Origin: an uncultured Alphaproteobacteria bacterium
GTDB taxonomy: Bacteria; Pseudomonadota; Alphaproteobacteria; HIMB59; GCA-002718135
DNA length: 64,000 nt
Direction: 5' to 3'
Assembly: GCA_902512415.1 (NCBI GenBank)
Contig: CABXJB010000001.1
Coordinates: forward strand, 4,384-68,383
Part shown: piece after piece, positions 2,230 to 18,485 of the stretch
Layout of the letters: each line of letters begins with the position of its first letter
How positions within the stretch are numbered: position 1 is the first letter of the stretch
Notes under the pieces: generated by a model
Database searches by the model: none
Told to the model about the DNA's origin: nothing
What the model saw: only the letters and a program-made list of their open reading frames with translations
Position numbers and translations under genes: made by a program

Positions 2230-3200
2230 TGATCAACCCAGTGATTGGGTGAAACTTCTATCAAGCCCATTTCTATATGTCCTTCCTTACAATCATGTGT
2301 AGGGTTAGGACATCTTGTTCTAAATACACACCCTGAAGGAGGATTCATTGCGCTTGGTATTTCTCCTTGAAGCTCAATTGCTTTAGATTTTTTTTCAGGA
2401 TCAATTGATGGAATAGAAGATAATAATGCTTTCGTATAAGAGTGTCTCGGATTACTAAACAACTCTCTTGATGGTGCCATTTCAACAATATGTCCAAGAT
2501 ACATTACCGCTACTATATCACATACATGAGCAACAACACTTAAGTCGTGACTTATAAATAAATATGTTAAATTCAATTCTTGTTGAAGTTGTTTTAAAAG
2601 ATTTAAAATATCTGCTTGTATCGAAACATCTAACGCAGCAACACTTTCATCAGCAACAATAAATTTTGGATTACTTACCAAAGCCCTTGCAATAGAAATA
2701 CGTTGACGCTGTCCACCAGAAAAAGCGTGAGGAAATCTTCTTAAATGTTCAAGATTTAATCGGCATTTTGCAGCAATATCTCGCACTCTTGCATCAGTTT
2801 CCTCTCTAGAATTCGTTATTCTCATTACCTCTAATGGTTCAGCAATTATATCTCTTACCGTCATTCGAGGACTAAGTGCAGCATATGGATCTTGAAAGAT
2901 AAGTTGTGCTTTTTTTCTATACTCTTTCATTTCTTTAGCTGTAATTGATGTTAAGTCAAAATCTCTTTCATCATCATGAAAAATTACATTACCTTCACTA
3001 ACCTTATTCGCGCCTAAGATTGCTCTCCCAAGTGTAGTTTTACCTGATCCAGATTCACCAACCAAACCAAAAAAGGATCCTTTTTTAATTTTGAAATTAA
3101 TATTGTTAACGGCTTTTATTTTTTGTTTTTTTGATAAAAAATTTTCTTGATAATCAAAGGATACAGATAAATTATTTACTGATAGAATATTTTCACTCAT
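2208..3200 (-). CDS. oligopeptide/dipeptide-type ABC transporter ATP-binding protein (OppF/DppF-like) with Cys-rich C-terminal tail
   Basis: Walker A GESGSGKTT, signature FSGGQRQR, Walker B FIVADES. I prefer ATG 3200 (MSENILSV); the 8 codons upstream (MLCELWLS) are read-through of the repeated tail of the neighbouring gene. Confidence 0.9.
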   Translation of the reverse strand: MSENILSVNNLSVSFDYQENFLSKKQKIKAVNNINFKIKKGSFFGLVGESGSGKTTLGRAILGANKVSEGNVIFHDDERDFDLTSITAKEMKEYRKKAQLIFQDPYAALSPRMTVRDIIAEPLEVMRITNSREETDARVRDIAAKCRLNLEHLRRFPHAFSGGQRQRISIARALVSNPKFIVADESVAALDVSIQADILNLLKQLQQELNLTYLFISHDLSVVAHVCDIVAVMYLGHIVEMAPSRELFSNPRHSYTKALLSSIPSIDPEKKSKAIELQGEIPSAMNPPSGCVFRTRCPNPTHDCKEGHIEMGLIEVSPNHWVDQCCVNCG

Positions 3201-3202
3201 AC

Positions 3203-4183
3203 TTAACCACAATTCACACAACATTGATCAACCCAGTGACCTGGACTAACTTCTATTAAACCCATTTCAATACTTCCTTCTTTACACTCATGGGTAGGAT
3301 CTGGGCATCTTGTTCTAAACACACAACCTGTTGGTCTATCCAGAGGACTTGGAATATTACCTGGTATAGGTTTTAATGGTGCATCAAGATTATTAATATC
3401 AGGCAGTGCATTTAATAAACCCCTTGTGTAAGGATGTTTCGGATTTTTTAGAATGTCATTGACTGGACCTCTCTCAACAACACTTCCAAGATACATAACT
3501 GCTACATCATCTGCTACTTGCGCAATAACACCAAGATCATGAGTGATGAATATAACACCCATATTGAATTCTTTAATAATATCTTTCATTAGGTTAATTA
3601 CCTGTGCCTGAATGGTAACATCAAGAGCAGTTGTTGGTTCATCTGCTAATAATAATTTTGGCATAGTAGATAATGCCATAGCTATCATCGCACGTTGTCT
3701 CATGCCCCCAGATAATTCAAAAGCATACTGATTAAATCTCTTTTCAGCATCAGCTATACCAACCCTTATTAACATATCTATTGATATATTTTTAGCCTCT
3801 CCTTTGCCCATAGTTTTATGAAGCATTAATTGTTCAACCATTTGATGACCTATTTTAATTGCTGGCGCAAAACTTGCCATAGGTTCTTGAAAAATCATTG
3901 ATACTTTGCCTCCCCTGATTTTTTTTAAATCATTTTTAGAAGTAAATTTTATAACATTTTCATCATCAATTATTATTTCTGCATTTTCATTATAAATTGT
4001 ATTTCCTGGGTTTAGCTGCATTATAGATTTTGCTGTAACTGACTTACCAGATCCTGACTCACCTACAATTCCCAAAACCTTTCCTTGATCCAATGTAAGG
4101 GAAACATTCTCTATTGCTGTAATACGTCCTTCATCAGTATCAAACTTAACATCTAAATTATTTATTTCTAATAAATGACTCAT
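3203..4183 (-). CDS. oligopeptide/dipeptide-type ABC transporter ATP-binding protein (OppD/DppD-like) with Cys-rich C-terminal tail
   Basis: Walker A GESGSGKSV, signature LSGGMRQR, Walker B LLLADEPTTALD; C-terminal oligopeptide-ABC domain. Confidence 0.9.
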   Translation of the reverse strand: MSHLLEINNLDVKFDTDEGRITAIENVSLTLDQGKVLGIVGESGSGKSVTAKSIMQLNPGNTIYNENAEIIIDDENVIKFTSKNDLKKIRGGKVSMIFQEPMASFAPAIKIGHQMVEQLMLHKTMGKGEAKNISIDMLIRVGIADAEKRFNQYAFELSGGMRQRAMIAMALSTMPKLLLADEPTTALDVTIQAQVINLMKDIIKEFNMGVIFITHDLGVIAQVADDVAVMYLGSVVERGPVNDILKNPKHPYTRGLLNALPDINNLDAPLKPIPGNIPSPLDRPTGCVFRTRCPDPTHECKEGSIEMGLIEVSPGHWVDQCCVNCG

Positions 4184-4185
4184 AA

Positions 4186-5346
4186 TTATTTAGTTTTGTG
4201 TGGATCTGCAGCATCTCGAAGACCATCTCCGACATAAACAAAGGTTAAGATTAAAACAACTAAGAAAAACACCGGTATAAAATACCATTGATAGTTTAAC
4301 AAAACATCTGCTTTAGTAGCATTTTGTAAAAGTACACCTAAGGAATTTACAGGTTCTCTTAGTCCTAAGCCAATAAAACTAAGTGCTGTTTCTGATAACA
4401 ACATGTAAGGAAAACTTATAACGAGATCAACAATGATATAACTTGTAAAGCTAGGTAAGAGATGGCGAGCAATAATATGTGTAGATGAGGCTCCGCATAA
4501 TTGAGCAGCCAATATATATTCTTGACTTCTCTCACTGAGTAAATGAGTACGTACACGGCGTGCCAATGTCGGCCAAGAAATTAACCCTAATAAACATGAT
4601 ATAAAGAAAAACCTTAGTTCGGAGCTCCATTCAAGTGGAGCAAAAGCTGCCAAACACATAAACAAAGGAATTGGAGGAACCGTCCGAATTGCATCGGTAA
4701 ACATTTGCAACAAACTATCAATCCAACCTCCGTAATATCCAGATATTCCTCCTATAATTAGAGATAAAACAAAGGAAATAAAGACTCCTAATGTACCTAC
4801 AGCAAGTGAAATATAAATTGCACTTAAGGTTCTACTAAATAAATCTTTTCCTGCCTTATCTGTTCCAAATATATGAATACCGCCTTCATCAACACCAAAT
4901 AAATGAGTTTCAAATGCTATGCCTGGAATTTTAAAATCTAATGCCTTTCCTGGAAGATTAATACTATAATTGAAAAATTTATATTCCCAACCTTTAACAA
5001 AAAAATAAACATAGCGTCTCTTTTCCGTATCAGTTTTGTAAACCCACCTAAAATTTGTATCAGCCCCTCTATACTTTGTTAAGGTATGAAGAAAGGGTCT
5101 AGGTGAAAAACCATTTTCGTCCCAAAATATTGGAATTTGAGGGGCCCCATTTTCATAATCTTTATCACGACCAGCAATTGTTGGGTCATAGGGAGAAAGA
5201 AAACCGGAAAAAAGACTGCAAACTATCATAAATAATAAAATAGAGCCTGCAATCATTGCGGATTTGTTACCAAAGAAACGAGTTCTCACTAACTGCATTT
5301 GAGTAGCGGTATAATATGCTTCTTTTTTCTTAGAGCTAATTTCCAC
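4186..5346 (-). CDS. ABC transporter permease (OppC/DppC-like)
   Basis: 386 aa with an N-terminal TM, a large loop and a binding-protein-dependent transporter core; sits between the ATPase and second permease genes. Confidence 0.85.
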   Translation of the reverse strand: MEISSKKKEAYYTATQMQLVRTRFFGNKSAMIAGSILLFMIVCSLFSGFLSPYDPTIAGRDKDYENGAPQIPIFWDENGFSPRPFLHTLTKYRGADTNFRWVYKTDTEKRRYVYFFVKGWEYKFFNYSINLPGKALDFKIPGIAFETHLFGVDEGGIHIFGTDKAGKDLFSRTLSAIYISLAVGTLGVFISFVLSLIIGGISGYYGGWIDSLLQMFTDAIRTVPPIPLFMCLAAFAPLEWSSELRFFFISCLLGLISWPTLARRVRTHLLSERSQEYILAAQLCGASSTHIIARHLLPSFTSYIIVDLVISFPYMLLSETALSFIGLGLREPVNSLGVLLQNATKADVLLNYQWYFIPVFFLVVLILTFVYVGDGLRDAADPHKTK

Positions 5347-6349
5347 CCATTACCCCTTTTCTGATTCTAGGATCCATTATTGCTAAAATAATATCAGTTA
5401 CAAAATTTACAAAAACTATAGTTGCTGTCAGTAAAAAAATAATTGCACCAGCTAATTGTTGATCATTTGATCTAGCTAAAGCTTCTATCAACAACGCTCC
5501 TGCTTCAGTTAAAATCAAAATTAATGCAACAATTGGCAAAGCACTAAATATTCGATTTAAATCAAAACCTATTGAATTAATTACTGGTCCAAGAGAATGT
5601 TTGGCGGGATATCTCCACAACAAACTCATACCTGATATACCTCTTGCTCTTGCGGCCATAACATACAATTTATCATTTTCATCAAGCATTAAAGCCCTGA
5701 CTGTTTGCAAAGCAAAAGCAGTAGCGTTCCAACCTAATACAAAAATAGGTAACCAAGCTCTACTTAAAAAATCTCTAACTCTGGCCATAGACCACGGAAC
5801 ATTCTCATATTCCTGAGAAAACAAACCTGTCATTGTATCTCCAAAATATACTGTCATAAAAAGCATAATACATAGTGCCACTAAAAAATTGGGAAGGGCT
5901 ATCCCTAAATAGCTTATAAATTTTAATGTCTGATCTAAAGAAACATACTTCGTCGAGGCGGAAATTATCCCAACTGGAATTGCAATCAAATAGGAAAATA
6001 TCAATGCCGTAATTGCTATTGTTAATGATAAAACAAACCTGCCACTTAATAACTCATTAATACTAATTCTTAATATGCAACTATCTCCAAAATCTTGTCT
6101 GACAACAATATCTGATACCCATTTTCCATACCTATAAAGAAATGGTTTATCTAAACCTAATTTTTTTTTCTCAGCAACAATTTCCTCATAGGTTATTTGG
6201 GAGCCTTGAGTATTTTTAAATGCAAGGTAACGTTCAGCACAAGTACCTGGAACTAGCTCCATTAATGAAAAAACAATAAAACAAACTATGAGTAATGTAA
6301 CAATAGCTAAAAAAGCTCTAGTCAATGTGAATTGTATAAAATTAATCAT
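5336..6349 (-). CDS. ABC transporter permease (OppB/DppB-like)
   Basis: 337 aa polytopic membrane protein ending in the DPRIR motif typical of OppB/DppB permeases; overlaps the next gene by 11 nt. Confidence 0.85.
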   Translation of the reverse strand: MINFIQFTLTRAFLAIVTLLIVCFIVFSLMELVPGTCAERYLAFKNTQGSQITYEEIVAEKKKLGLDKPFLYRYGKWVSDIVVRQDFGDSCILRISINELLSGRFVLSLTIAITALIFSYLIAIPVGIISASTKYVSLDQTLKFISYLGIALPNFLVALCIMLFMTVYFGDTMTGLFSQEYENVPWSMARVRDFLSRAWLPIFVLGWNATAFALQTVRALMLDENDKLYVMAARARGISGMSLLWRYPAKHSLGPVINSIGFDLNRIFSALPIVALILILTEAGALLIEALARSNDQQLAGAIIFLLTATIVFVNFVTDIILAIMDPRIRKGVMGGN

Positions 6350-6383
6350 ATTTGATTTCTCTTAATTGCTAGTTAAGAATAAT

Positions 6384-6420
6384 TAAAAAAAGAAAAGCGG
6401 CAATACAAAATTGCCGCTTT
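6384..6420 (-). terminator. intra-operon hairpin (partial terminator/attenuator) between the SBP gene and the permease genes
   Basis: Stem aaagcggcaa (6394-6403) / ttgccgcttt (6411-6420) with a 7-nt loop. On the minus strand it is followed by a U-run (the plus-strand A-run at 6384-6393). Confidence 0.55.
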
Positions 6421-6442
6421 TAAAGATATTTATTTACTTATC

Positions 6443-8491
6443 TTATTCGTCTAACCACCATTGTGTTGGTAGATATGGATAAGTTCTGTAATACTCATAT
6501 GAAGTTGTTTTAAATTGAGCAAAGTTCTTCAATGCATTTCTATGATATGTTGGGAAAGGTGCTTTTACAGTACCTAACAACAAACTTTGTTCTGTTATCA
6601 TAGTTGTCATTTTTTTACCCCATTCAGCTGATTCAGGTGTTCCTAAAGCATATGATTGGAATTGATCGATTGCATCACTTAACTCATAAACCCATGCTGG
6701 TGGTTCTACACCATCAGAGCCTCCACTATCAATATAAGCTGCCCATAACATTCCTTGAGTATGACTAAAGTAGTTACCAAAAGGCGGTTTAAAGTTTTCA
6801 GGATTACCTGCAACAATCGCCAATGGATGTCCTTTGTCCCATGCATGTACATCAAGAGCATTTGATGATTGAGAACCACGATATTCATCAGGTGTCACTT
6901 CTTTAAATGCAGTTTTAATACCAACATCATTCCAATGACGTGCAACCAATTCTACCTCAACACCACCTATACCTTGCGTAGCATAATCAATATTCATAGC
7001 AAAAGGAGCTCCACTTGGAAGTTCTCTAAAGCCATCTCCATCAGTATCTGCTAAACCAATTTCATCAAGAAGAGCATTTGCTGCATCTGGATCATATTGA
7101 GTCATATAGTTTCTCATATCATCAGAAACAAAGTCAGGAGCAGGTGAAATACCTGTATACTGTTCTACAGTACCCATACCATAATAAGCTACATCATTGA
7201 TCTCATCTCTGTTCATAGCCATAGACATTGCTTGACGGAAACGAATATCACCATACACAGATCTTTTTTCCATATCTGGATGAGTTACGTTAAAGCTAAA
7301 TAACGCCGCGCCACAACCTGGATTAATTTGAATACTATATCCACCCTTTTCTGCTCCATCTAATAATTGCGGTGCAGATTCAAGTTGAACTGACTGAGAT
7401 TTATAATCAACTTCACCATTAACAAGTTTTAATAGTCTGATCTCATTTTCATTGATGTATCTTTCATTTTGATAATCAATATAAGGTAATTGATTTCCAG
7501 CTGTATCAACTTGGAAGAAGTATGGATTAGCTGCATATACTCTTCCTTCAGTCGTATCTTCAATTGTCATATACGCTTCTAAAGAAGGGTAAGCTGCATA
7601 TTCTAAACCAGCAACTAAATCAGGATTTCTCAACATAGGTGTTGGAGTATCTGTCCAACCTGAGTTACCATAATAAGCTGCTAAAGCATCCCATCCATTT
7701 TCAAATCCAAGTGCTTGCGCATTTGCATCAGCATTTGAATCTATTTCAGGATGAAACTGCTCTAAGAAGTGAGCAGGCATAAATGCTTGGTTATATGATG
7801 TTGCAAGTGTAGCTAAAACTCCAGGCATTGGAGATGGTAGATTAAACCTTGCAGTAACATCATCCAGAACATCAACTGTCATTGGTTTTCCACCAACAAG
7901 AAGATAGCCATAAGGCTTTTCTCTGATATTAGCATTCATCATTAAATCTTCATACCAAAATTCAACGTCTCTTGCTGTAAATGGCTCACCATTTGACCAT
8001 CTATGACCCTTTCTAAGGGTAAAAGTCAATTCAGTGAAATCATCATTCCATGAGTAAGCTTTTGCAACATTAGGAACAATTGTAGCTAAGTCGTCAGCAA
8101 AACGAACTAAGTTTACGTGACGAGTTGATAGCATGTCAGAAGTACCTGCTTCTGTTGCATTTGATAAAAAGTTAATTGTTCCACCATAAGATCCAATTGA
8201 ATCATATGGAACAACTACTAATGGTTCATCAGGTAAACGGTCAGCAACACCTGCTAAACCTTTGTTACCTTGAATAGTAGCATTAATACTCGCAATATTT
8301 GGATTCTCAGAAAAACCCATAGTACATCCGGCTGCACTTTCATATTCTGATAATTCATATTGCTGAGGGTATTGTCCACCTTTGTGTCCATCACTCATAG
8401 TTGAGCCTGAACAAGCTCCTGCATAAGAGCTTGCACTCCACAACACAGTAGCAGATGAAAATACCAATGCTAAAAATAATTTTTTAAACAT
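6443..8491 (-). CDS. ABC transporter substrate-binding protein, family 5 (peptide/opine/nickel type), unusually long at 682 aa
   Basis: Signal peptide MFKKLFLALVFSSATVLWSASSYA; family-5 SBP-like core; first gene of the opp-like operon. Confidence 0.85.
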   Translation of the reverse strand: MFKKLFLALVFSSATVLWSASSYAGACSGSTMSDGHKGGQYPQQYELSEYESAAGCTMGFSENPNIASINATIQGNKGLAGVADRLPDEPLVVVPYDSIGSYGGTINFLSNATEAGTSDMLSTRHVNLVRFADDLATIVPNVAKAYSWNDDFTELTFTLRKGHRWSNGEPFTARDVEFWYEDLMMNANIREKPYGYLLVGGKPMTVDVLDDVTARFNLPSPMPGVLATLATSYNQAFMPAHFLEQFHPEIDSNADANAQALGFENGWDALAAYYGNSGWTDTPTPMLRNPDLVAGLEYAAYPSLEAYMTIEDTTEGRVYAANPYFFQVDTAGNQLPYIDYQNERYINENEIRLLKLVNGEVDYKSQSVQLESAPQLLDGAEKGGYSIQINPGCGAALFSFNVTHPDMEKRSVYGDIRFRQAMSMAMNRDEINDVAYYGMGTVEQYTGISPAPDFVSDDMRNYMTQYDPDAANALLDEIGLADTDGDGFRELPSGAPFAMNIDYATQGIGGVEVELVARHWNDVGIKTAFKEVTPDEYRGSQSSNALDVHAWDKGHPLAIVAGNPENFKPPFGNYFSHTQGMLWAAYIDSGGSDGVEPPAWVYELSDAIDQFQSYALGTPESAEWGKKMTTMITEQSLLLGTVKAPFPTYHRNALKNFAQFKTTSYEYYRTYPYLPTQWWLDE

Positions 8492-11262: not shown

Positions 11263-11276
11263 TTGATCTAGATCAA
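11263..11276. promoter_or_regulatory. FNR-type box TTGATctagATCAA (orphan, between convergent genes)
   Basis: Perfect palindrome read directly. TACAAT at 11298-11303 sits where a class II -10 would be. Confidence 0.5.
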
Positions 11277-11345
11277 TTAGTTTTAAGTTTAATAGATTAC
11301 AATTAATACCTTAAACATTTAGTTTCTTCCTATTAAGTTAAAGAT

Positions 11346-11385
11346 TTAACCCCCATCCTTTCTTATGGGGGTTAATTTTATTTAT
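11346..11385. terminator. rho-independent terminator hairpin, possibly bidirectional
   Basis: Stem ttaaccccca (11346-11355) / tgggggttaa (11366-11375), followed on the plus strand by ttttatttat. It also lies immediately 3' of the nirK stop on the minus strand. Confidence 0.65.
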
Positions 11386-12598
11386 CTACTAAGCTCAAAA
11401 GATGTTGCTCATAAGCATTCCAATCAATATCACTTGGCTCTTTTATCTGTTTCATTAAATCATCGTTCCATTTACCATTTACTTGTACTTCTGCTTTTGC
11501 TCCTAAAATAAATGCTTCAATTAAATTATGATTTAAGTACACATAAGTACCTGGTTGATGAAAAGTATATATTGCAGCAGCAGCAGCTCCACCCGGAACA
11601 AACCAAGTTTCCAAATTTGTTCTAGGCGGATCATTGAATGATCCGTTGGGCCATACAAAATCTCCATGTCCGCCAATAAGATGAGGTCGTGTATCTCTAT
11701 TTGATTGAGCATGGATAAATAAAACAGTTTCACCGACCTCGGCAGTCATAGCATTTTCTCCAGTTAAAGAATCAACTGCACCATTAAACACAACATGACT
11801 TGGCGTAAGTGTTCTCATTACCTCTAATGTTTCACTATAACCATCACCTGGTTCCTTAAAAATTTTATAATTTCCATATTCATCTTTTGGAATATAAAAA
11901 TCTTGCTCTCCAATATAATATGCTTTGTCATATCTTATTGGATTGCCATCACGGTCTTTTAATCCATCACGTGGTAATACCATCACAGCACCATTCATAC
12001 CTTTAACGACGTGCCATGGCACCATAGCTCCTCCTGGAGCACAATGATAAACAAAAACTCCTGGCTTAGTAGCTTTCCAACGCAAAATTACTTCCTCACC
12101 TGGTAATACATGTGTTAAACCACCACCTCCAAGAGCTCCTGTAGAAGCATGAAAATCTATATTATGTTGAAAATTATTCTTCTCAGGATTAATCAAAGTT
12201 AATTCTATATAATCCCCTTCATGAACAACAATTATAGGACCTGGAACAGAATCATTAAATGCAAATACTCGAAACTGAGTTCCTTCATCATCAATTTCAA
12301 TAATCTTTTCTTCAATTATCATAGTTACTTTAACTACTTTAGAACTTTGTCCAGCTACCTGATCATGAATAGGAACAAAAGGAGGGGGTAATAACTTTTG
12401 AACAACAACTGGAAGGTTATCAGCCGTATCAGCATTGGCTTTAAAAGAAACTAAAAAAACAATACTGAGAAAAATAACTAATATAAAAAATGCTACTTTG
12501 TTACTAATATTTAGAAAGTCTAAAGAAAACTCTTGCTCTTCAAATTTATCCCATTCATCTTTTTTATTTTCTAAATCAAGTTTATAGTTAATATTCAT
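11378..12598 (-). CDS. nirK: copper-containing nitrite reductase
   Basis: Cu ligand motifs [22 protein letters not shown] and [11 protein letters not shown] prefer ATG 12598, preceded by AGGAGA (12610-12605), over the GTG at 12622 in the ORF track. Confidence 0.9.
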
Positions 12599-12646
12599 AT
12601 CTATTCTCCTTTTTGTAAACACTTACAAGCAAGTAGAGAGATTTTT

Positions 12647-12736
12647 TTGATTAATATCAAAATGCAATCATTTTTGATTAAGATCAAAATTATTTTTGAT
12701 TTGAATCAAACTGAGCATTATTTTGATTAAAATCAA
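12647..12736. promoter_or_regulatory. array of four FNR-type boxes in the divergent nirK / pdxH-like control region
   Basis: TTGATtaatATCAA 12647-12660, TTGATtaagATCAA 12674-12687, TTGATttgaATCAA 12696-12709, TTGATtaaaATCAA 12723-12736. Confidence 0.8.
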
Positions 12737-12768
12737 ATTCTTTCTCCTGAGCAATGATATAAAAAATT

Positions 12769-13386
12769 GTGAACTTTGATCTTGATAAACAAATTTTAAT
12801 TGAAGAAAATAAACAAGGTCCTTTTGAATTATTCTCAAGTTGGTACAAATCGGCAGTAAATAATGAAATTAATAATCCTAATGCAATGAATGTCGCTACT
12901 GTATCAACAAATATGCAGCCTACATCTAGAATGATATTATTAAAAGAATATGATGAATCAGGATTTATATTTAATACAAATATTGAAAGTAATAAATCTA
13001 GAGAAATCGAATCGAATAATCTAGTAGCACTTAATTTTCATTGGAAAAGTCTTCATCGACAAGTGCGAATTCAAGGAAAGGCAGTATTATTAAGTGACAA
13101 AAAAGCAAATCAGTGTTTTAATGATAGACCGAGAGAATCTAAAATAGCTGCATGGGCATCTAAACAATCTGAATTATTACCTAATAGAAAATTGCTTAAT
13201 AAAAGAGTTCATTATTATGAAAATTTTTTTAGTAATATTTCAGTAGAACGACCAAGTTTTTGGTCGGGATATAAAGTCATACCACAATACTTTGAATTCT
13301 GGTGGGATGTAAAATTTAGGCTTCATTATAGAGTTGTTTTTAATAAAAATAAAAAAAAATGGGATAAACATATGCTTTATCCTTGA
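12769..13386 (+). CDS. pdxH: pyridoxamine 5'-phosphate oxidase (PNPOx) family protein
   Basis: 205 aa; PNAMNVATV near the N-terminus and the C-terminal FEFWWDVKFRLHYRVVF...LYP pattern typical of PdxH; GTG start. Confidence 0.75.
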   Translation: MNFDLDKQILIEENKQGPFELFSSWYKSAVNNEINNPNAMNVATVSTNMQPTSRMILLKEYDESGFIFNTNIESNKSREIESNNLVALNFHWKSLHRQVRIQGKAVLLSDKKANQCFNDRPRESKIAAWASKQSELLPNRKLLNKRVHYYENFFSNISVERPSFWSGYKVIPQYFEFWWDVKFRLHYRVVFNKNKKKWDKHMLYP

Positions 13387-15466: not shown

Positions 15467-15667
15467 TTATGGTTTCGAAAATTTATCAAAGTAAAAATCT
15501 CTTTCAACATCTGATGTTTTATTATTTATAAGATGTTGATCCCTTATTTGTAATTTTTCTAGTTTAGAAATAAAGGGAGGAGAAGAACGCCATCCATAAG
15601 AGATTAATTTATCATCTTGAGTTTTATATAATGTTAAAAATCTAAATTTATTAATTCTTTTTTTCAT
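15467..15667 (-). CDS. small hypothetical protein (66 aa)
   Basis: ATG 15667 is preceded by AGGAGA (15679-15674). It is first in a three-gene minus-strand unit behind an FNR box. Confidence 0.4.
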   Translation of the reverse strand: MKKRINKFRFLTLYKTQDDKLISYGWRSSPPFISKLEKLQIRDQHLINNKTSDVERDFYFDKFSKP

Positions 15668-15713: not shown

Positions 15714-15754
15714 TTGATCAACATCAATTTAAGTTTTAATTTGATCTGTATCAA
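15714..15754. promoter_or_regulatory. two FNR-type boxes (divergent promoters)
   Basis: TTGATcaacATCAA 15714-15727 and TTGATctgtATCAA 15741-15754; centres 27 bp apart. Confidence 0.75.
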
Positions 15755-15794: not shown

Positions 15795-15884
15795 ATGAAC
15801 ATTAGAGTATCTGGTTTAACGTCTGGTATTTTAGGTGCCTTGTATGTTTTAATCATTACATGGTGGTTAATAATTTATGATTAA
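15795..15884 (+). CDS. candidate 29-aa hydrophobic micro-protein
   Basis: Own translation MNIRVSGLTSGILGALYVLIITWWLIIYD. ATG is 47.5 bp from the centre of box 15741-15754. Below the ORF-track length cut-off. Confidence 0.25.
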   Translation: MNIRVSGLTSGILGALYVLIITWWLIIYD

Positions 15885-16009
15885 TAGAAACTATGTATAA
15901 GTAAATAAAAAAAAATATATAAAACTACAAATATCAAAACTGCAATTGCAAATTCAAAAAAACCCGAGCTTTGATGTTCATCATTATTAATGTTATGATT
16001 ATTATTCAT
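15881..16009 (-). CDS. candidate 42-aa single-TM micro-protein
   Basis: Own translation MNNNHNINNDEHQSSGFFEFAIAVLIFVVLYIFFYLLIHSFY. ATG is 41.5 bp from the centre of box 16044-16057. Confidence 0.25.
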   Translation of the reverse strand: MNNNHNINNDEHQSSGFFEFAIAVLIFVVLYIFFYLLIHSFY

Positions 16010-16043: not shown

Positions 16044-16112
16044 TTGATTTTGATCAAAGAAGTAGTTATTTTGATTTGAGTCAATTCTTCTTAATAATTT
16101 GATTTAAATCAA
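16044..16112. promoter_or_regulatory. three FNR-type boxes
   Basis: TTGATtttgATCAA 16044-16057, TTGATttgaGTCAA 16071-16084 (1 mismatch), TTGATttaaATCAA 16099-16112; centre spacing 27 and 28 bp. Confidence 0.75.
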
Positions 16113-16702: not shown

Positions 16703-16873
16703 TTAGTGTACGGCAGTTATTTTTTCTCTTCCAGAAAATATGTTTTTCCTGATTTCTGTTATTTTTTCTTGAGAATAACCGTGTCCGATCACTAAGTGTT
16801 TATCAGAAAATGAGACTGATCTAGTTACAATTACTAAGAGGATAATGATTATGATTAAAGGAATATATTTCAT
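16703..16873 (-). CDS. small membrane-anchored/secreted hypothetical protein (56 aa)
   Basis: MKYIPLIIIIILLVIVTRSV... from ATG 16873. The longer track ORF would run through the FNR boxes. Confidence 0.4.
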   Translation of the reverse strand: MKYIPLIIIIILLVIVTRSVSFSDKHLVIGHGYSQEKITEIRKNIFSGREKITAVH

Positions 16874-16906: not shown

Positions 16907-16947
16907 TTGATTTAAATCAAAAAAGGATTTGTTTTGATACAAATCAA
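16907..16947. promoter_or_regulatory. two FNR-type boxes (divergent promoters)
   Basis: TTGATttaaATCAA 16907-16920 and TTGATacaaATCAA 16934-16947; centres 27 bp apart. Confidence 0.75.
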
Positions 16948-16981: not shown

Positions 16982-17170
16982 ATGCTTTCACTCCAAGCAA
17001 TCATTGCCTTAACATATGTTCCTTCTGTGCCACTCATTGCGTTTTCTGTAGTTGCGGGCATGGAAAATAATCCTAAAGCACAGAAATGGTACGGTTTTTT
17101 TGGGGGTGTTTTTTTTGTTATTGCTACTGTTGCCTATGTTTTTTTTCTTGGTGAACTTTTATCAAACTAG
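16982..17170 (+). CDS. small two-TM membrane protein (62 aa), function unknown
   Basis: Two hydrophobic segments (LIAFSVVAG, GGVFFVIATVAYVFFLG). ATG is 41.5 bp from the box centre. Confidence 0.4.
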   Translation: MLSLQAIIALTYVPSVPLIAFSVVAGMENNPKAQKWYGFFGGVFFVIATVAYVFFLGELLSN

Positions 17171-17697: not shown

Positions 17698-17711
17698 TTG
17701 ATTTAGATCAA
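17698..17711. promoter_or_regulatory. FNR-type box shared by the divergent 165-aa gene and the fnr-like gene
   Basis: TTGATttagATCAA read directly. Confidence 0.7.
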
Positions 17712-17750: not shown

Positions 17751-18485
17751 ATGGAGCATAGAATGGAACCAGTTGCAAGTTGTACAACAAAGAATAAAAA
17801 CAATAATCATAGGTGCGCTCAATGCTCTGTACGCCTAATTGCTTTTTGTGGTATTCTAGATGACAGTGATATTATACAATTAGAAGCAATATCTAAAAAT
17901 ATATCTTTTCCCAAAGGAACAAATATTTTCTTTCAAGGTGATCAAGTTAAAACATTCTTCAATATTAAACAAGGAAGTATAAAAATATACAAACTTTCAC
18001 ATGATGGAAGAAAACAAATTGTAGGTTTTTTGTATCCTGGGGATTTTTTAGGTATGTCAGATCAAGAAGTTTATACTTACAATGCAGAAGCTTTAGAAGA
18101 TACGCAACTGTGTCAATTCAATAAAATAGTTCTAGAGAATTTTTTTCTTAAATTTCCTAAGATTGAAAATAAAATACTTAATTTGGTTAATCATGAACTA
18201 GCAGTTGCGCAGGATCAAATTTTTCTTTTGGGAAAATATTCTGCGAGAGAACGCTTATTACAATTTTTCTTGAACATATCGAATCAGCGTGAGAAACTAG
18301 GATGGGGAGGCAACCCTATTCGTCTCAGTATGCCAAGATCTGATATAGCCAACTATTTAGGACTGACCATTGAGACAGTTAGCAGAACGCTTGCCGATCT
18401 TAAGAACGAGCAAATTATTAAAATGTTAGGGACTCAAGATATTTTTTTGAATAATAAGGATGAAATTCCACAGTATTTGTCCTAG
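17751..18485 (+). CDS. fnr: CRP/FNR-family transcription regulator, FnrL/FnrN-type (putative [4Fe-4S] O2 sensor)
   Basis: N-terminal C-x2-C-x7-C (CAQCSVRLIAFC) plus a further Cys upstream and a central Cys (TQLCQF); cNMP-like beta-roll; HTH with the ETVSR recognition motif. Start may be 17730, 17751 or 17763. Confidence 0.85.
   Translation: MEHRMEPVASCTTKNKNNNHRCAQCSVRLIAFCGILDDSDIIQLEAISKNISFPKGTNIFFQGDQVKTFFNIKQGSIKIYKLSHDGRKQIVGFLYPGDFLGMSDQEVYTYNAEALEDTQLCQFNKIVLENFFLKFPKIENKILNLVNHELAVAQDQIFLLGKYSARERLLQFFLNISNQREKLGWGGNPIRLSMPRSDIANYLGLTIETVSRTLADLKNEQIIKMLGTQDIFLNNKDEIPQYLS

Follow-up and report, generated by a model that had tools for sequence, protein, structure and literature searches.

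Paired FNR boxes at a 26-28 bp pitch between nirK and pdxH of an uncultured alphaproteobacterium, and a four-box allele that probably arose by recombination

Introduction

In SAR11-type bacteria, the most numerous heterotrophs of the sea, nirK forms a link to the loss of nitrogen from oxygen-deficient waters. In the DNA analysed here, a stretch of 64,000 nucleotides from an uncultured marine alphaproteobacterium that is SAR11/HIMB59-like (the window), nirK and the divergently oriented pdxH gene are separated by a spacer of 170 bp in which four FNR boxes follow one another. What do four boxes do between two promoters? The first-pass annotation of this DNA had proposed a designed back-to-back module of fixed pitch, in which each outer box serves one promoter and the two inner boxes give cooperative or graded control. 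We compared the region with related contigs that were reached through homologues; exact-sequence look-ups of the PdxH and NirK proteins of the window returned no match. The reading that we consider probable is that of two divergent class II FNR promoters sharing a 26-28 bp pair module, which has been doubled by recombination in a minority allele at nirK.

Results

FNR boxes and genes of the island

Direct reading of the sequence and a pattern search placed four perfect TTGAT-N4-ATCAA boxes at the same coordinates of the nirK-pdxH spacer: box 1 (TTGATTAATATCAA, 12647-12660), box 2 (TTGATTAAGATCAA, 12674-12687), box 3 (TTGATTTGAATCAA, 12696-12709) and box 4 (TTGATTAAAATCAA, 12723-12736). Their centres lie at 12653.5, 12680.5, 12702.5 and 12729.5, with spacings of 27, 22 and 27 bp, as first annotated. 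The whole window holds twelve perfect boxes, all of them inside the 6.5 kb between 11263 and 17711 and every one either intergenic or at a gene start. The chance expectation for perfect boxes in 64 kb is 0.53, and the maximum found in 100 dinucleotide-preserving shuffles was four. TRF detected in the spacer only a weak 22-bp period (74% matches, score 64) arising from the boxes themselves, and an iteron array or simple tandem repeat was ruled out because the sequences between the boxes are unrelated.

The first-pass annotation had also reported a 27-28 bp pitch at the other multi-box regions, and this was reproduced. A two-box module at 15714-15754 (centres 15720.5 and 15747.5, pitch 27 bp) has its left box directed towards a 66-aa ORF (ATG 15667, minus strand, AGGAG leader) and its right box without a clear partner gene. 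In the three-box array at 16044-16112 (centres 16050.5, 16077.5 and 16105.5, pitch 27 and 28 bp) the left outer box faces a 42-aa ORF (ATG 16009, minus strand, at +41.5, offsets being counted outward from each box centre here and below) and the right outer box faces the peroxiredoxin gene (ATG 16146, at +40.5), while the middle box has one mismatch and no promoter. Another two-box module at 16907-16947 (centres 16913.5 and 16940.5, pitch 27 bp), which is kept at a 26-bp pitch in contig L117, lies between divergent and apparently leaderless ORFs of 56 aa (ATG 16873, minus strand) and 62 aa (ATG 16982, plus strand). Finally, a single box at 17698-17711 is common to two predicted divergent promoters, those of a 165-aa ORF (ATG 17664, minus strand, at +40.5) and of fnrL (ATG 17763, with a GGAG leader).

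The two genes that flank the spacer were assigned by their family models. nirK encodes a copper-containing nitrite reductase of 406 aa (11378-12598, minus strand; TIGR02376, 481 bits against a cutoff of 296) and starts at ATG 12598, the same start that gene callers chose on related contigs; its product shares 95% identity with one encoded by a Saanich Inlet MAG of the Pelagibacteraceae (L001). pdxH encodes a pyridoxamine 5'-phosphate oxidase of 205 aa (12769-13386, plus strand; TIGR00558, 224 bits against a cutoff of 180; NF004231, 238 bits) and starts at GTG 12769. Together with two 2OG-Fe(II) oxygenase-like genes, a Prx5-like peroxiredoxin gene, several tiny membrane-peptide ORFs and one FnrL-type regulator gene, they make up a box-rich low-oxygen island.

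The FnrL-type regulator (17763-18485, plus strand) matches FnrL/FNR models, carries a C-X2-C-X7-C pattern plus a central Cys, and has the recognition helix ETVSR. Its residues 17-235 align with Aliivibrio FNR (5cvr), with C18, C21, C29, C117 and ETVSR conserved. Since it is the only Crp/Fnr paralogue in the 64-kb window and keeps both the cluster cysteines and ETVSR, it is the natural candidate for the protein that binds the boxes, and we infer that FnrL would bind and activate at them.

The predicted FnrL regulon between 12769 and 16700 consists mostly of oxygen-consuming or oxidative-stress enzymes (PdxH, the two 2OG-Fe(II) oxygenase-like proteins and the Prx5-like peroxiredoxin). It is not an anaerobic-respiration set and looks like a compensation for scarce oxygen. 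Four tiny, mostly hydrophobic ORFs of 66, 42, 56 and 62 aa (15467-15667, minus; 15881-16009, minus; 16703-16873, minus; 16982-17170, plus) each have an FNR box of their own, and for three of the four the predicted start coincides with the ATG. In L117, where NirK is 78% identical, a homologue of the 62-aa ORF can be recognised, and its geometry is the same.

A further module on the plus strand (11263-11385) is convergent with nirK at its 3' end. Here a perfect box at 11263-11276 is followed by TACAAT (11298-11303), which has the class II offset, by some 73 nt of sequence and by a strong terminator, formed by a hairpin at 11346-11375 and a T-run. Relatives keep this module next to nirK, also when the other neighbour is a different gene. 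The predicted RNA folds better than shuffled sequences (z = -3.6) and its loop, UCUUCCUA, resembles an anti-Shine-Dalgarno sequence. An Rfam scan of the window found tRNAs only, with no match for this RNA; the module may encode an FNR-dependent small RNA.

Geometry of the outward promoters

In the window, 10 of the 11 outward flanks have a TA at +28.5 that begins a -10-like hexamer. The predicted hexamers are TAAGTG for nirK (12620-12625, minus strand, +28.5 to +33.5 from the centre of box 1) and TATAAA for pdxH (12758-12763, plus strand, +28.5 to +33.5 from the centre of box 4); TATTAT, TATACA, TAAGTT, TAAATT and TACAAT are found elsewhere. The pdxH hexamer is identical in all relatives, and the homologous nirK hexamers read TAAGTG, TATGTG or TTAAGT. 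When the window and its relatives were taken together, T occupied +28.5 in 58 of 67 distinct outward flanks, A occupied +29.5 in 51, and TA as a whole stood at +28.5/+29.5 in 48 and no more than one base away from there in 58. These counts are to be weighed against two facts: the 67 flanks represent just about 20 promoter families that are independent, and at about 28% GC -10-like hexamers are common. The start codons show a corresponding arrangement, with a peak of ATG at +40.5/41.5 (26 of the 67 flanks) and a second group at +53.5 to +57.5 behind AGGAG (about 20). Gene calls made independently on related contigs agree on the starts of the 165-, 62-, 56-, 184-, 66-, 205-, 406- and 240-aa products, and the outward geometry holds for homologous small ORFs and in lineages with only 78% NirK identity.

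Inward of the paired boxes, the hexamer at +28.5 is the half-site of the neighbouring box (AATCAA or GATCAA) and never TAnnnn. Boxes 2 and 3 were checked in both directions at the promoter offset, and no -10-like hexamer was found. A scan of the nirK-pdxH spacer for the sigma-70 -35/-10 consensus detected no promoter, as expected if the promoters are activator-dependent. The outer boxes thus look like the activator sites of outward-facing class II FNR promoters placed back to back, in agreement with the earlier proposal that each serves its own promoter; the +28.5 TA hexamers and the ATG peaks fit the predicted starts. A class II promoter is defined by a site at about -41.5, a -10 element some 21-22 bp beyond the edge of the box, and the lack of a -35 element. 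In alphaproteobacteria, Fnr boxes have been mapped experimentally at -40.5 to -42.5 (PMC7713065).

From this geometry, transcription of nirK is predicted to start at about 12612-12613, which would place box 1 at about -40.5/-41.5 and give a leader of about 15 nt with AAGGAG. For pdxH, with box 4 as the predicted activator site, the start is expected at about 12769-12771, at the GTG start codon itself. A leaderless GUG start of this kind would be unusual. Judged by the same offsets, many transcripts of the island would be leaderless, whereas a leader of 12-17 nt that includes a ribosome-binding site is expected for nirK, fnrL and the 66-aa ORF.

Conservation of the pitch

Among adjacent-box pairs of the window and related contigs, 30 of 44 distinct sequences are spaced by 26-28 bp and 2 of 44 by 22 bp. 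No pair at 26-28 bp was found in 912 kb of nirK loci from other bacteria. In relatives the pitch is kept down to 78% NirK identity, and the 12-14-nt spacers between paired boxes have nothing in common beyond the A/T flanks of the boxes. Since the distance is constant between spacers of unrelated sequence, it is length that is conserved. When orthologous spacers were compared for both box number and spacing, as the first-pass annotation had called for, the spacing proved conserved in this way while the number did not, there being two, three or four boxes. Nor is 27 bp obligatory, as a back-to-back pair in L133 is 36 bp apart.

A pitch of 26-28 bp corresponds to about 2.6 helical turns and sets neighbouring boxes on roughly opposite faces of the DNA. 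Taking standard footprint sizes, with both sites at about -41.5 and a 27-bp pitch, the upstream edges (about -55) of the two divergent polymerase footprints would coincide, the tightest packing that the arrangement would allow.

Box pairs at 26-28 bp were also sought in 2.9 million viral contigs, with seven matches. The sole multi-pair match, L126, has five perfect 28-bp tandem repeats at 2494-2630, each with TTGATATAGATCAA, and was rejected as kin of this system, being an iteron-like perfect repeat on a viral contig. In L115 (2792-2832) and L116 (1500-1540), a box pair with a 27-bp pitch lies inside a conserved 69-aa ORF and outside any spacer. As a separate observation, on the contigs L117-L119 (about 15 kb; 311-958 and 2456-7107), which have coverage up to 1541x, an island of nirK, fnr, oxygenase and pseudoazurin genes stands about 1.5 kb from a Terminase_2 gene, and in that lineage it may be carried by a phage or prophage.

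Two-box and four-box alleles

In about 24 of the roughly 28 related contigs (L001, L082, L083, L123 and twenty contigs reached through two NirK homologues) the nirK-pdxH spacer is 121 bp long and has two boxes 27 bp apart. Alignment of the window with the L001 spacer shows one clean gap of 49 bp and near identity elsewhere, and the same was seen against 20 further loci. The missing segment can be placed at 12683-12731, an ambiguous placement as the boxes repeat. Among the related contigs compared, L122 and L124 alone share the four boxes of the window; they are independent assemblies from different samples with the same 170-bp spacer. Three boxes are present in L114, L115/116 and L133/134. A designed and conserved four-box module is therefore not what the relatives show: two boxes are the common state, and four are confined to three assemblies. 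The difference must be very recent, for one and the same NirK protein (P0008) is found with the two-box spacer in L123 and with the four-box spacer in L124.

The two halves of the long spacer have different affinities. Box 1, the sequence that follows it and box 2 match allele A (L001/L094), box 1 being kept in A-type relatives; the counterpart of box 2 in the two-box allele is the pdxH promoter box. Exact matches to allele B (L104) were obtained for the spacer ACTGAGCATTATT and for box 4, which is identical to the pdxH-side box of that allele; box 3 departs from the allele-B box in two letters. By these matches, the extra 49 bp joins two allelic two-box modules in tandem at box sequences. As the halves match two different alleles, recombination between alleles is preferred over plain duplication; a plain recent tandem duplication was rejected, the two 49-bp halves being about 67% identical with nearly all matches inside the boxes.

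Two other arrangements were noted at these loci. L114 (1-85), the closest relative by NirK (98% identity), has box 3 followed by a different rightward gene in place of pdxH, with its ATG at +39.5; the sequence of this gene matched no other locus, and the arrangement suggests that gene cassettes are exchanged at boxes. In the B-type contigs L104-L110, the region downstream of nirK differs from that of the window, with two NarK-like MFS transporter genes, a TauE-like gene and narG, which indicates that some strains combine nitrate and nitrite reduction at this locus.

Upstream boxes that lack a divergent promoter

None of the lineages examined has fewer than two boxes at nirK, and the first interval measures 26-27 bp throughout. 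L117-121 and L135-138 have a second, perfect box 26 bp upstream, where the neighbouring gene has the same direction as nirK and no divergent ORF is present. Arrays of 27 and then 22 bp are found upstream of nirK in L114, L115/116 and L133/134, the third box facing the divergent gene (pdxH in L133). In the L001/L094 family the peroxiredoxin promoter retains its 28-bp partner box even though the 42-aa ORF and its own box have been lost. The persistence of boxes in otherwise unalignable spacers points to selection, and on this pattern of conservation the upstream boxes may have a modulatory role. The orphan boxes may drive unannotated transcripts, or a pair may act as a unit on one promoter.

Discussion

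The most probable account of the region places the nirK and pdxH promoters in a low-oxygen regulon under the FnrL-type regulator, whose gene lies 5 kb away. Box 1 would activate nirK through the -10 TAAGTG, with AAGGAG in a leader of about 15 nt, and box 4 would activate pdxH through TATAAA, with transcription beginning at or next to the GTG to yield a leaderless mRNA. The typical pair of this lineage would consist of outward promoters set back to back, each of them seeing FNR at about -41 and about -68. One such pair would be common to nirK and pdxH in the common allele. In the minority allele, recombination at boxes would have put two allelic pairs in tandem, 22 bp apart and with 49 bp of additional length, so that the nirK and pdxH promoters each own a pair. 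Boxes 2 and 3 would then be former promoter boxes that have lost their -10 partners: box 2 would lie at about -68 from the nirK promoter and about -90 from that of pdxH, and box 3 at about -90 and about -68, respectively. These inner boxes would at most modulate expression, with no conserved four-site device.

Several other readings can be set against this account. That the four boxes are a designed and conserved module whose inner pair gives cooperative or graded control of nirK and pdxH is improbable. All four boxes are perfect palindromes, the allele is found in three independent assemblies, extra nirK boxes recur in other lineages, and CRP or FNR bound upstream can have a positive or a negative effect on promoter activity, depending on where it binds (PMC3445967). 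Yet two boxes are present in about 24 of the 28 or so related contigs, one NirK protein goes with either form, the extra DNA combines two alleles and is not something separately evolved, the inner boxes are without promoter elements of their own, and boxes 2 and 3, 22 bp apart on the same face, might even preclude joint occupancy. The combination of sequences typical of two alleles would also be expected of a misassembly from mixed strain variants, an explanation of the 49-bp insertion that is extremely unlikely and was rejected: the junctions are confirmed by L122 and L124, from different samples, and by L114, which has the junction of boxes 2 and 3, and the two differing positions of box 3 do not fit a simple concatenation. 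Another Crp/Fnr protein encoded elsewhere could be the main reader of the boxes, for instance one of the NO-sensing NnrR/Dnr type. Such regulators usually control nirK in alphaproteobacteria and their boxes resemble FNR boxes, and the visible part of the genome amounts to 64 kb. However, the FnrL-type gene, which is alone of its family in the window, accompanies nirK and the boxes on all related contigs of sufficient length, has a box upstream of itself and carries the E--SR helix that reads TTGAT, all of which makes a different reader quite unlikely. Still less credible is a face-to-face, self-limiting design in which each box activates a promoter reading across its neighbour, the latter lying at about -14.5 and repressing at high FNR, as in fnrN of Rhizobium leguminosarum. 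There, a distal site that activates and a proximal one that represses make up a documented dual anaerobox (PMC7888657), and start codons would obtain leaders of about 27 nt instead of none. But what lies inward at +28.5 is a box half-site in every case, the outward hexamers, like the sharp ATG peak at +40.5/41.5, accord with outward promoters, and the fnrN boxes are 32 bp apart against 27 here, where fnrL has a single box; this promoter model was rejected on the positions of the hexamers.

Less easily set aside is the possibility that the pair is a single-promoter unit, in which two FNR dimers 26-28 bp apart (at about -41 and -68) act together, divergent promoters share or reuse the partner, and boxes 2 and 3 are working upstream sites. 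We regard it as possible, if somewhat unlikely, and give the same tentative standing to its corollary that the four-box allele provides each promoter with a full complement. It would account for the two or more boxes at nirK in every lineage with their first interval of 26-27 bp, for the perfect distal boxes of L117-121 and L135-138, which have no divergent gene and lie in spacer DNA that is unalignable between lineages, and for the 28-bp partner of the peroxiredoxin promoter that outlives the 42-aa ORF in the L001/L094 family. Conservation of spacer length without conservation of sequence is also in its favour, as is the low chance (about 5e-4, from the shuffle rate) of finding a box with at most one mismatch at 26-28 bp. 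On the other side, the same island has single-box promoters (fnrL and the 165-aa ORF) as well as a lone box at 11269.5, another occurs in L117 at 4307.5, and mismatches are commoner in middle or orphan boxes than in promoter boxes. In E. coli a site at -68.5 is off the face that class I activators use, and an alternative role of the orphan boxes would be to drive small or antisense RNAs that escaped annotation. Being short palindromic repeats, the boxes could let arrays grow or shrink by recombination. The fullest form of this idea, that the FNR control unit here is a dimer pair at a pitch of about 27 bp (-41, -68) and that box recombination in steps of 22, 27 and 49 bp has produced an allelic series of two, three and four boxes, which could tune nirK among co-occurring strains in oxygen-deficient water, is doubtful.

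Returning to the pair of divergent class II promoters, three outcomes of the comparison are of use beyond this locus. One is a testable promoter model made of an FnrL box, a TAnnnn hexamer and a start codon with a short leader or none; another is a spacing rule of 26-28 bp unexplained by sequence conservation; and the third is a natural experiment in strains with an identical NirK protein that differ only in having two or four boxes. Should the pitch reflect a binding unit of two dimers, it would be a new architecture for one of the best-studied families of regulators. Otherwise, the locus has an ordinary class II promoter pair, packed as tightly as two polymerases allow.

Comparison with known systems

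The organisms and the island have been met before. The nirK regions of SAR11/HIMB59 genomes treated in a 2026 paper (PMC12816887) belong to the same kind of organism and have nirK, a 2OG oxygenase gene and crp-fnr together; among the MAGs that it names is GCA_018649225.1 from Saanich Inlet, the source of L099, which it places in the HIMB59 clade. A term search of that paper found neither 'promoter' nor 'motif', and the passages returned contained nothing on regulator binding sites or their spacing. No publication describing a 27-bp FNR pitch was found in a literature coverage that is incomplete and leaves absence unproven.

Tandem-bound FNR has reportedly been studied by Barnard et al. in 2003. 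In class III promoters with tandem CRP or FNR sites (PMC3445967), there are sites upstream of the one at -41.5, as in the four-box allele, and in E. coli upstream-bound CRP or FNR raises or lowers promoter activity depending on its position (Lee and Busby 2012, PMC3445967). Unlike in those promoters, the positions found here (about -68, -90 and -117) would come from recombination and have no conserved placement. The dual anaerobox of Rhizobium leguminosarum fnrN (PMC7888657) likewise consists of two close FNR-type boxes upstream of an alphaproteobacterial low-oxygen gene, but these stand 32 bp apart and work on a single promoter, whose start is overlapped by the proximal box. In the island, the predicted -10 hexamers lie outward of the pair and fnrL has a single box, so that autoregulation of the fnrN type was ruled out on the direction of the hexamers, the 27-bp against the 32-bp distance and the one box of fnrL.

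The closest likeness in arrangement is the narU/ftrB region of Sphingopyxis granuli TFA (PMC7713065), where several Fnr boxes, three in that case, also lie between divergent low-oxygen genes and are assigned to individual promoters. No fixed pitch is reported for it, whereas here the spacing is conserved across lineages and the number of boxes is two, three or four among strains. At the level of the single promoter, the likeness is to class II FNR promoters as known from E. coli FNR and from alphaproteobacterial FnrL/FnrN, for example in Sphingopyxis granuli (PMC7713065): the same 14-bp TTGAT-N4-ATCAA replaces the -35 element about 41 bp upstream of the start (here a predicted one), the regulator is of the Fe-S cluster type of FNR, and the targets are low-oxygen genes. 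The sites of the island depart from that model in being mostly paired at 26-28 bp and in serving many genes that are apparently leaderless, with the ATG at the predicted start. The conserved 26-28 bp pairing, the apparently systematic leaderless design and the two-, three- and four-box polymorphism at nirK appear to be undescribed; known already are the FNR boxes, the class II geometry, the FnrL-type regulator and spacers with several boxes between divergent genes (PMC7713065).
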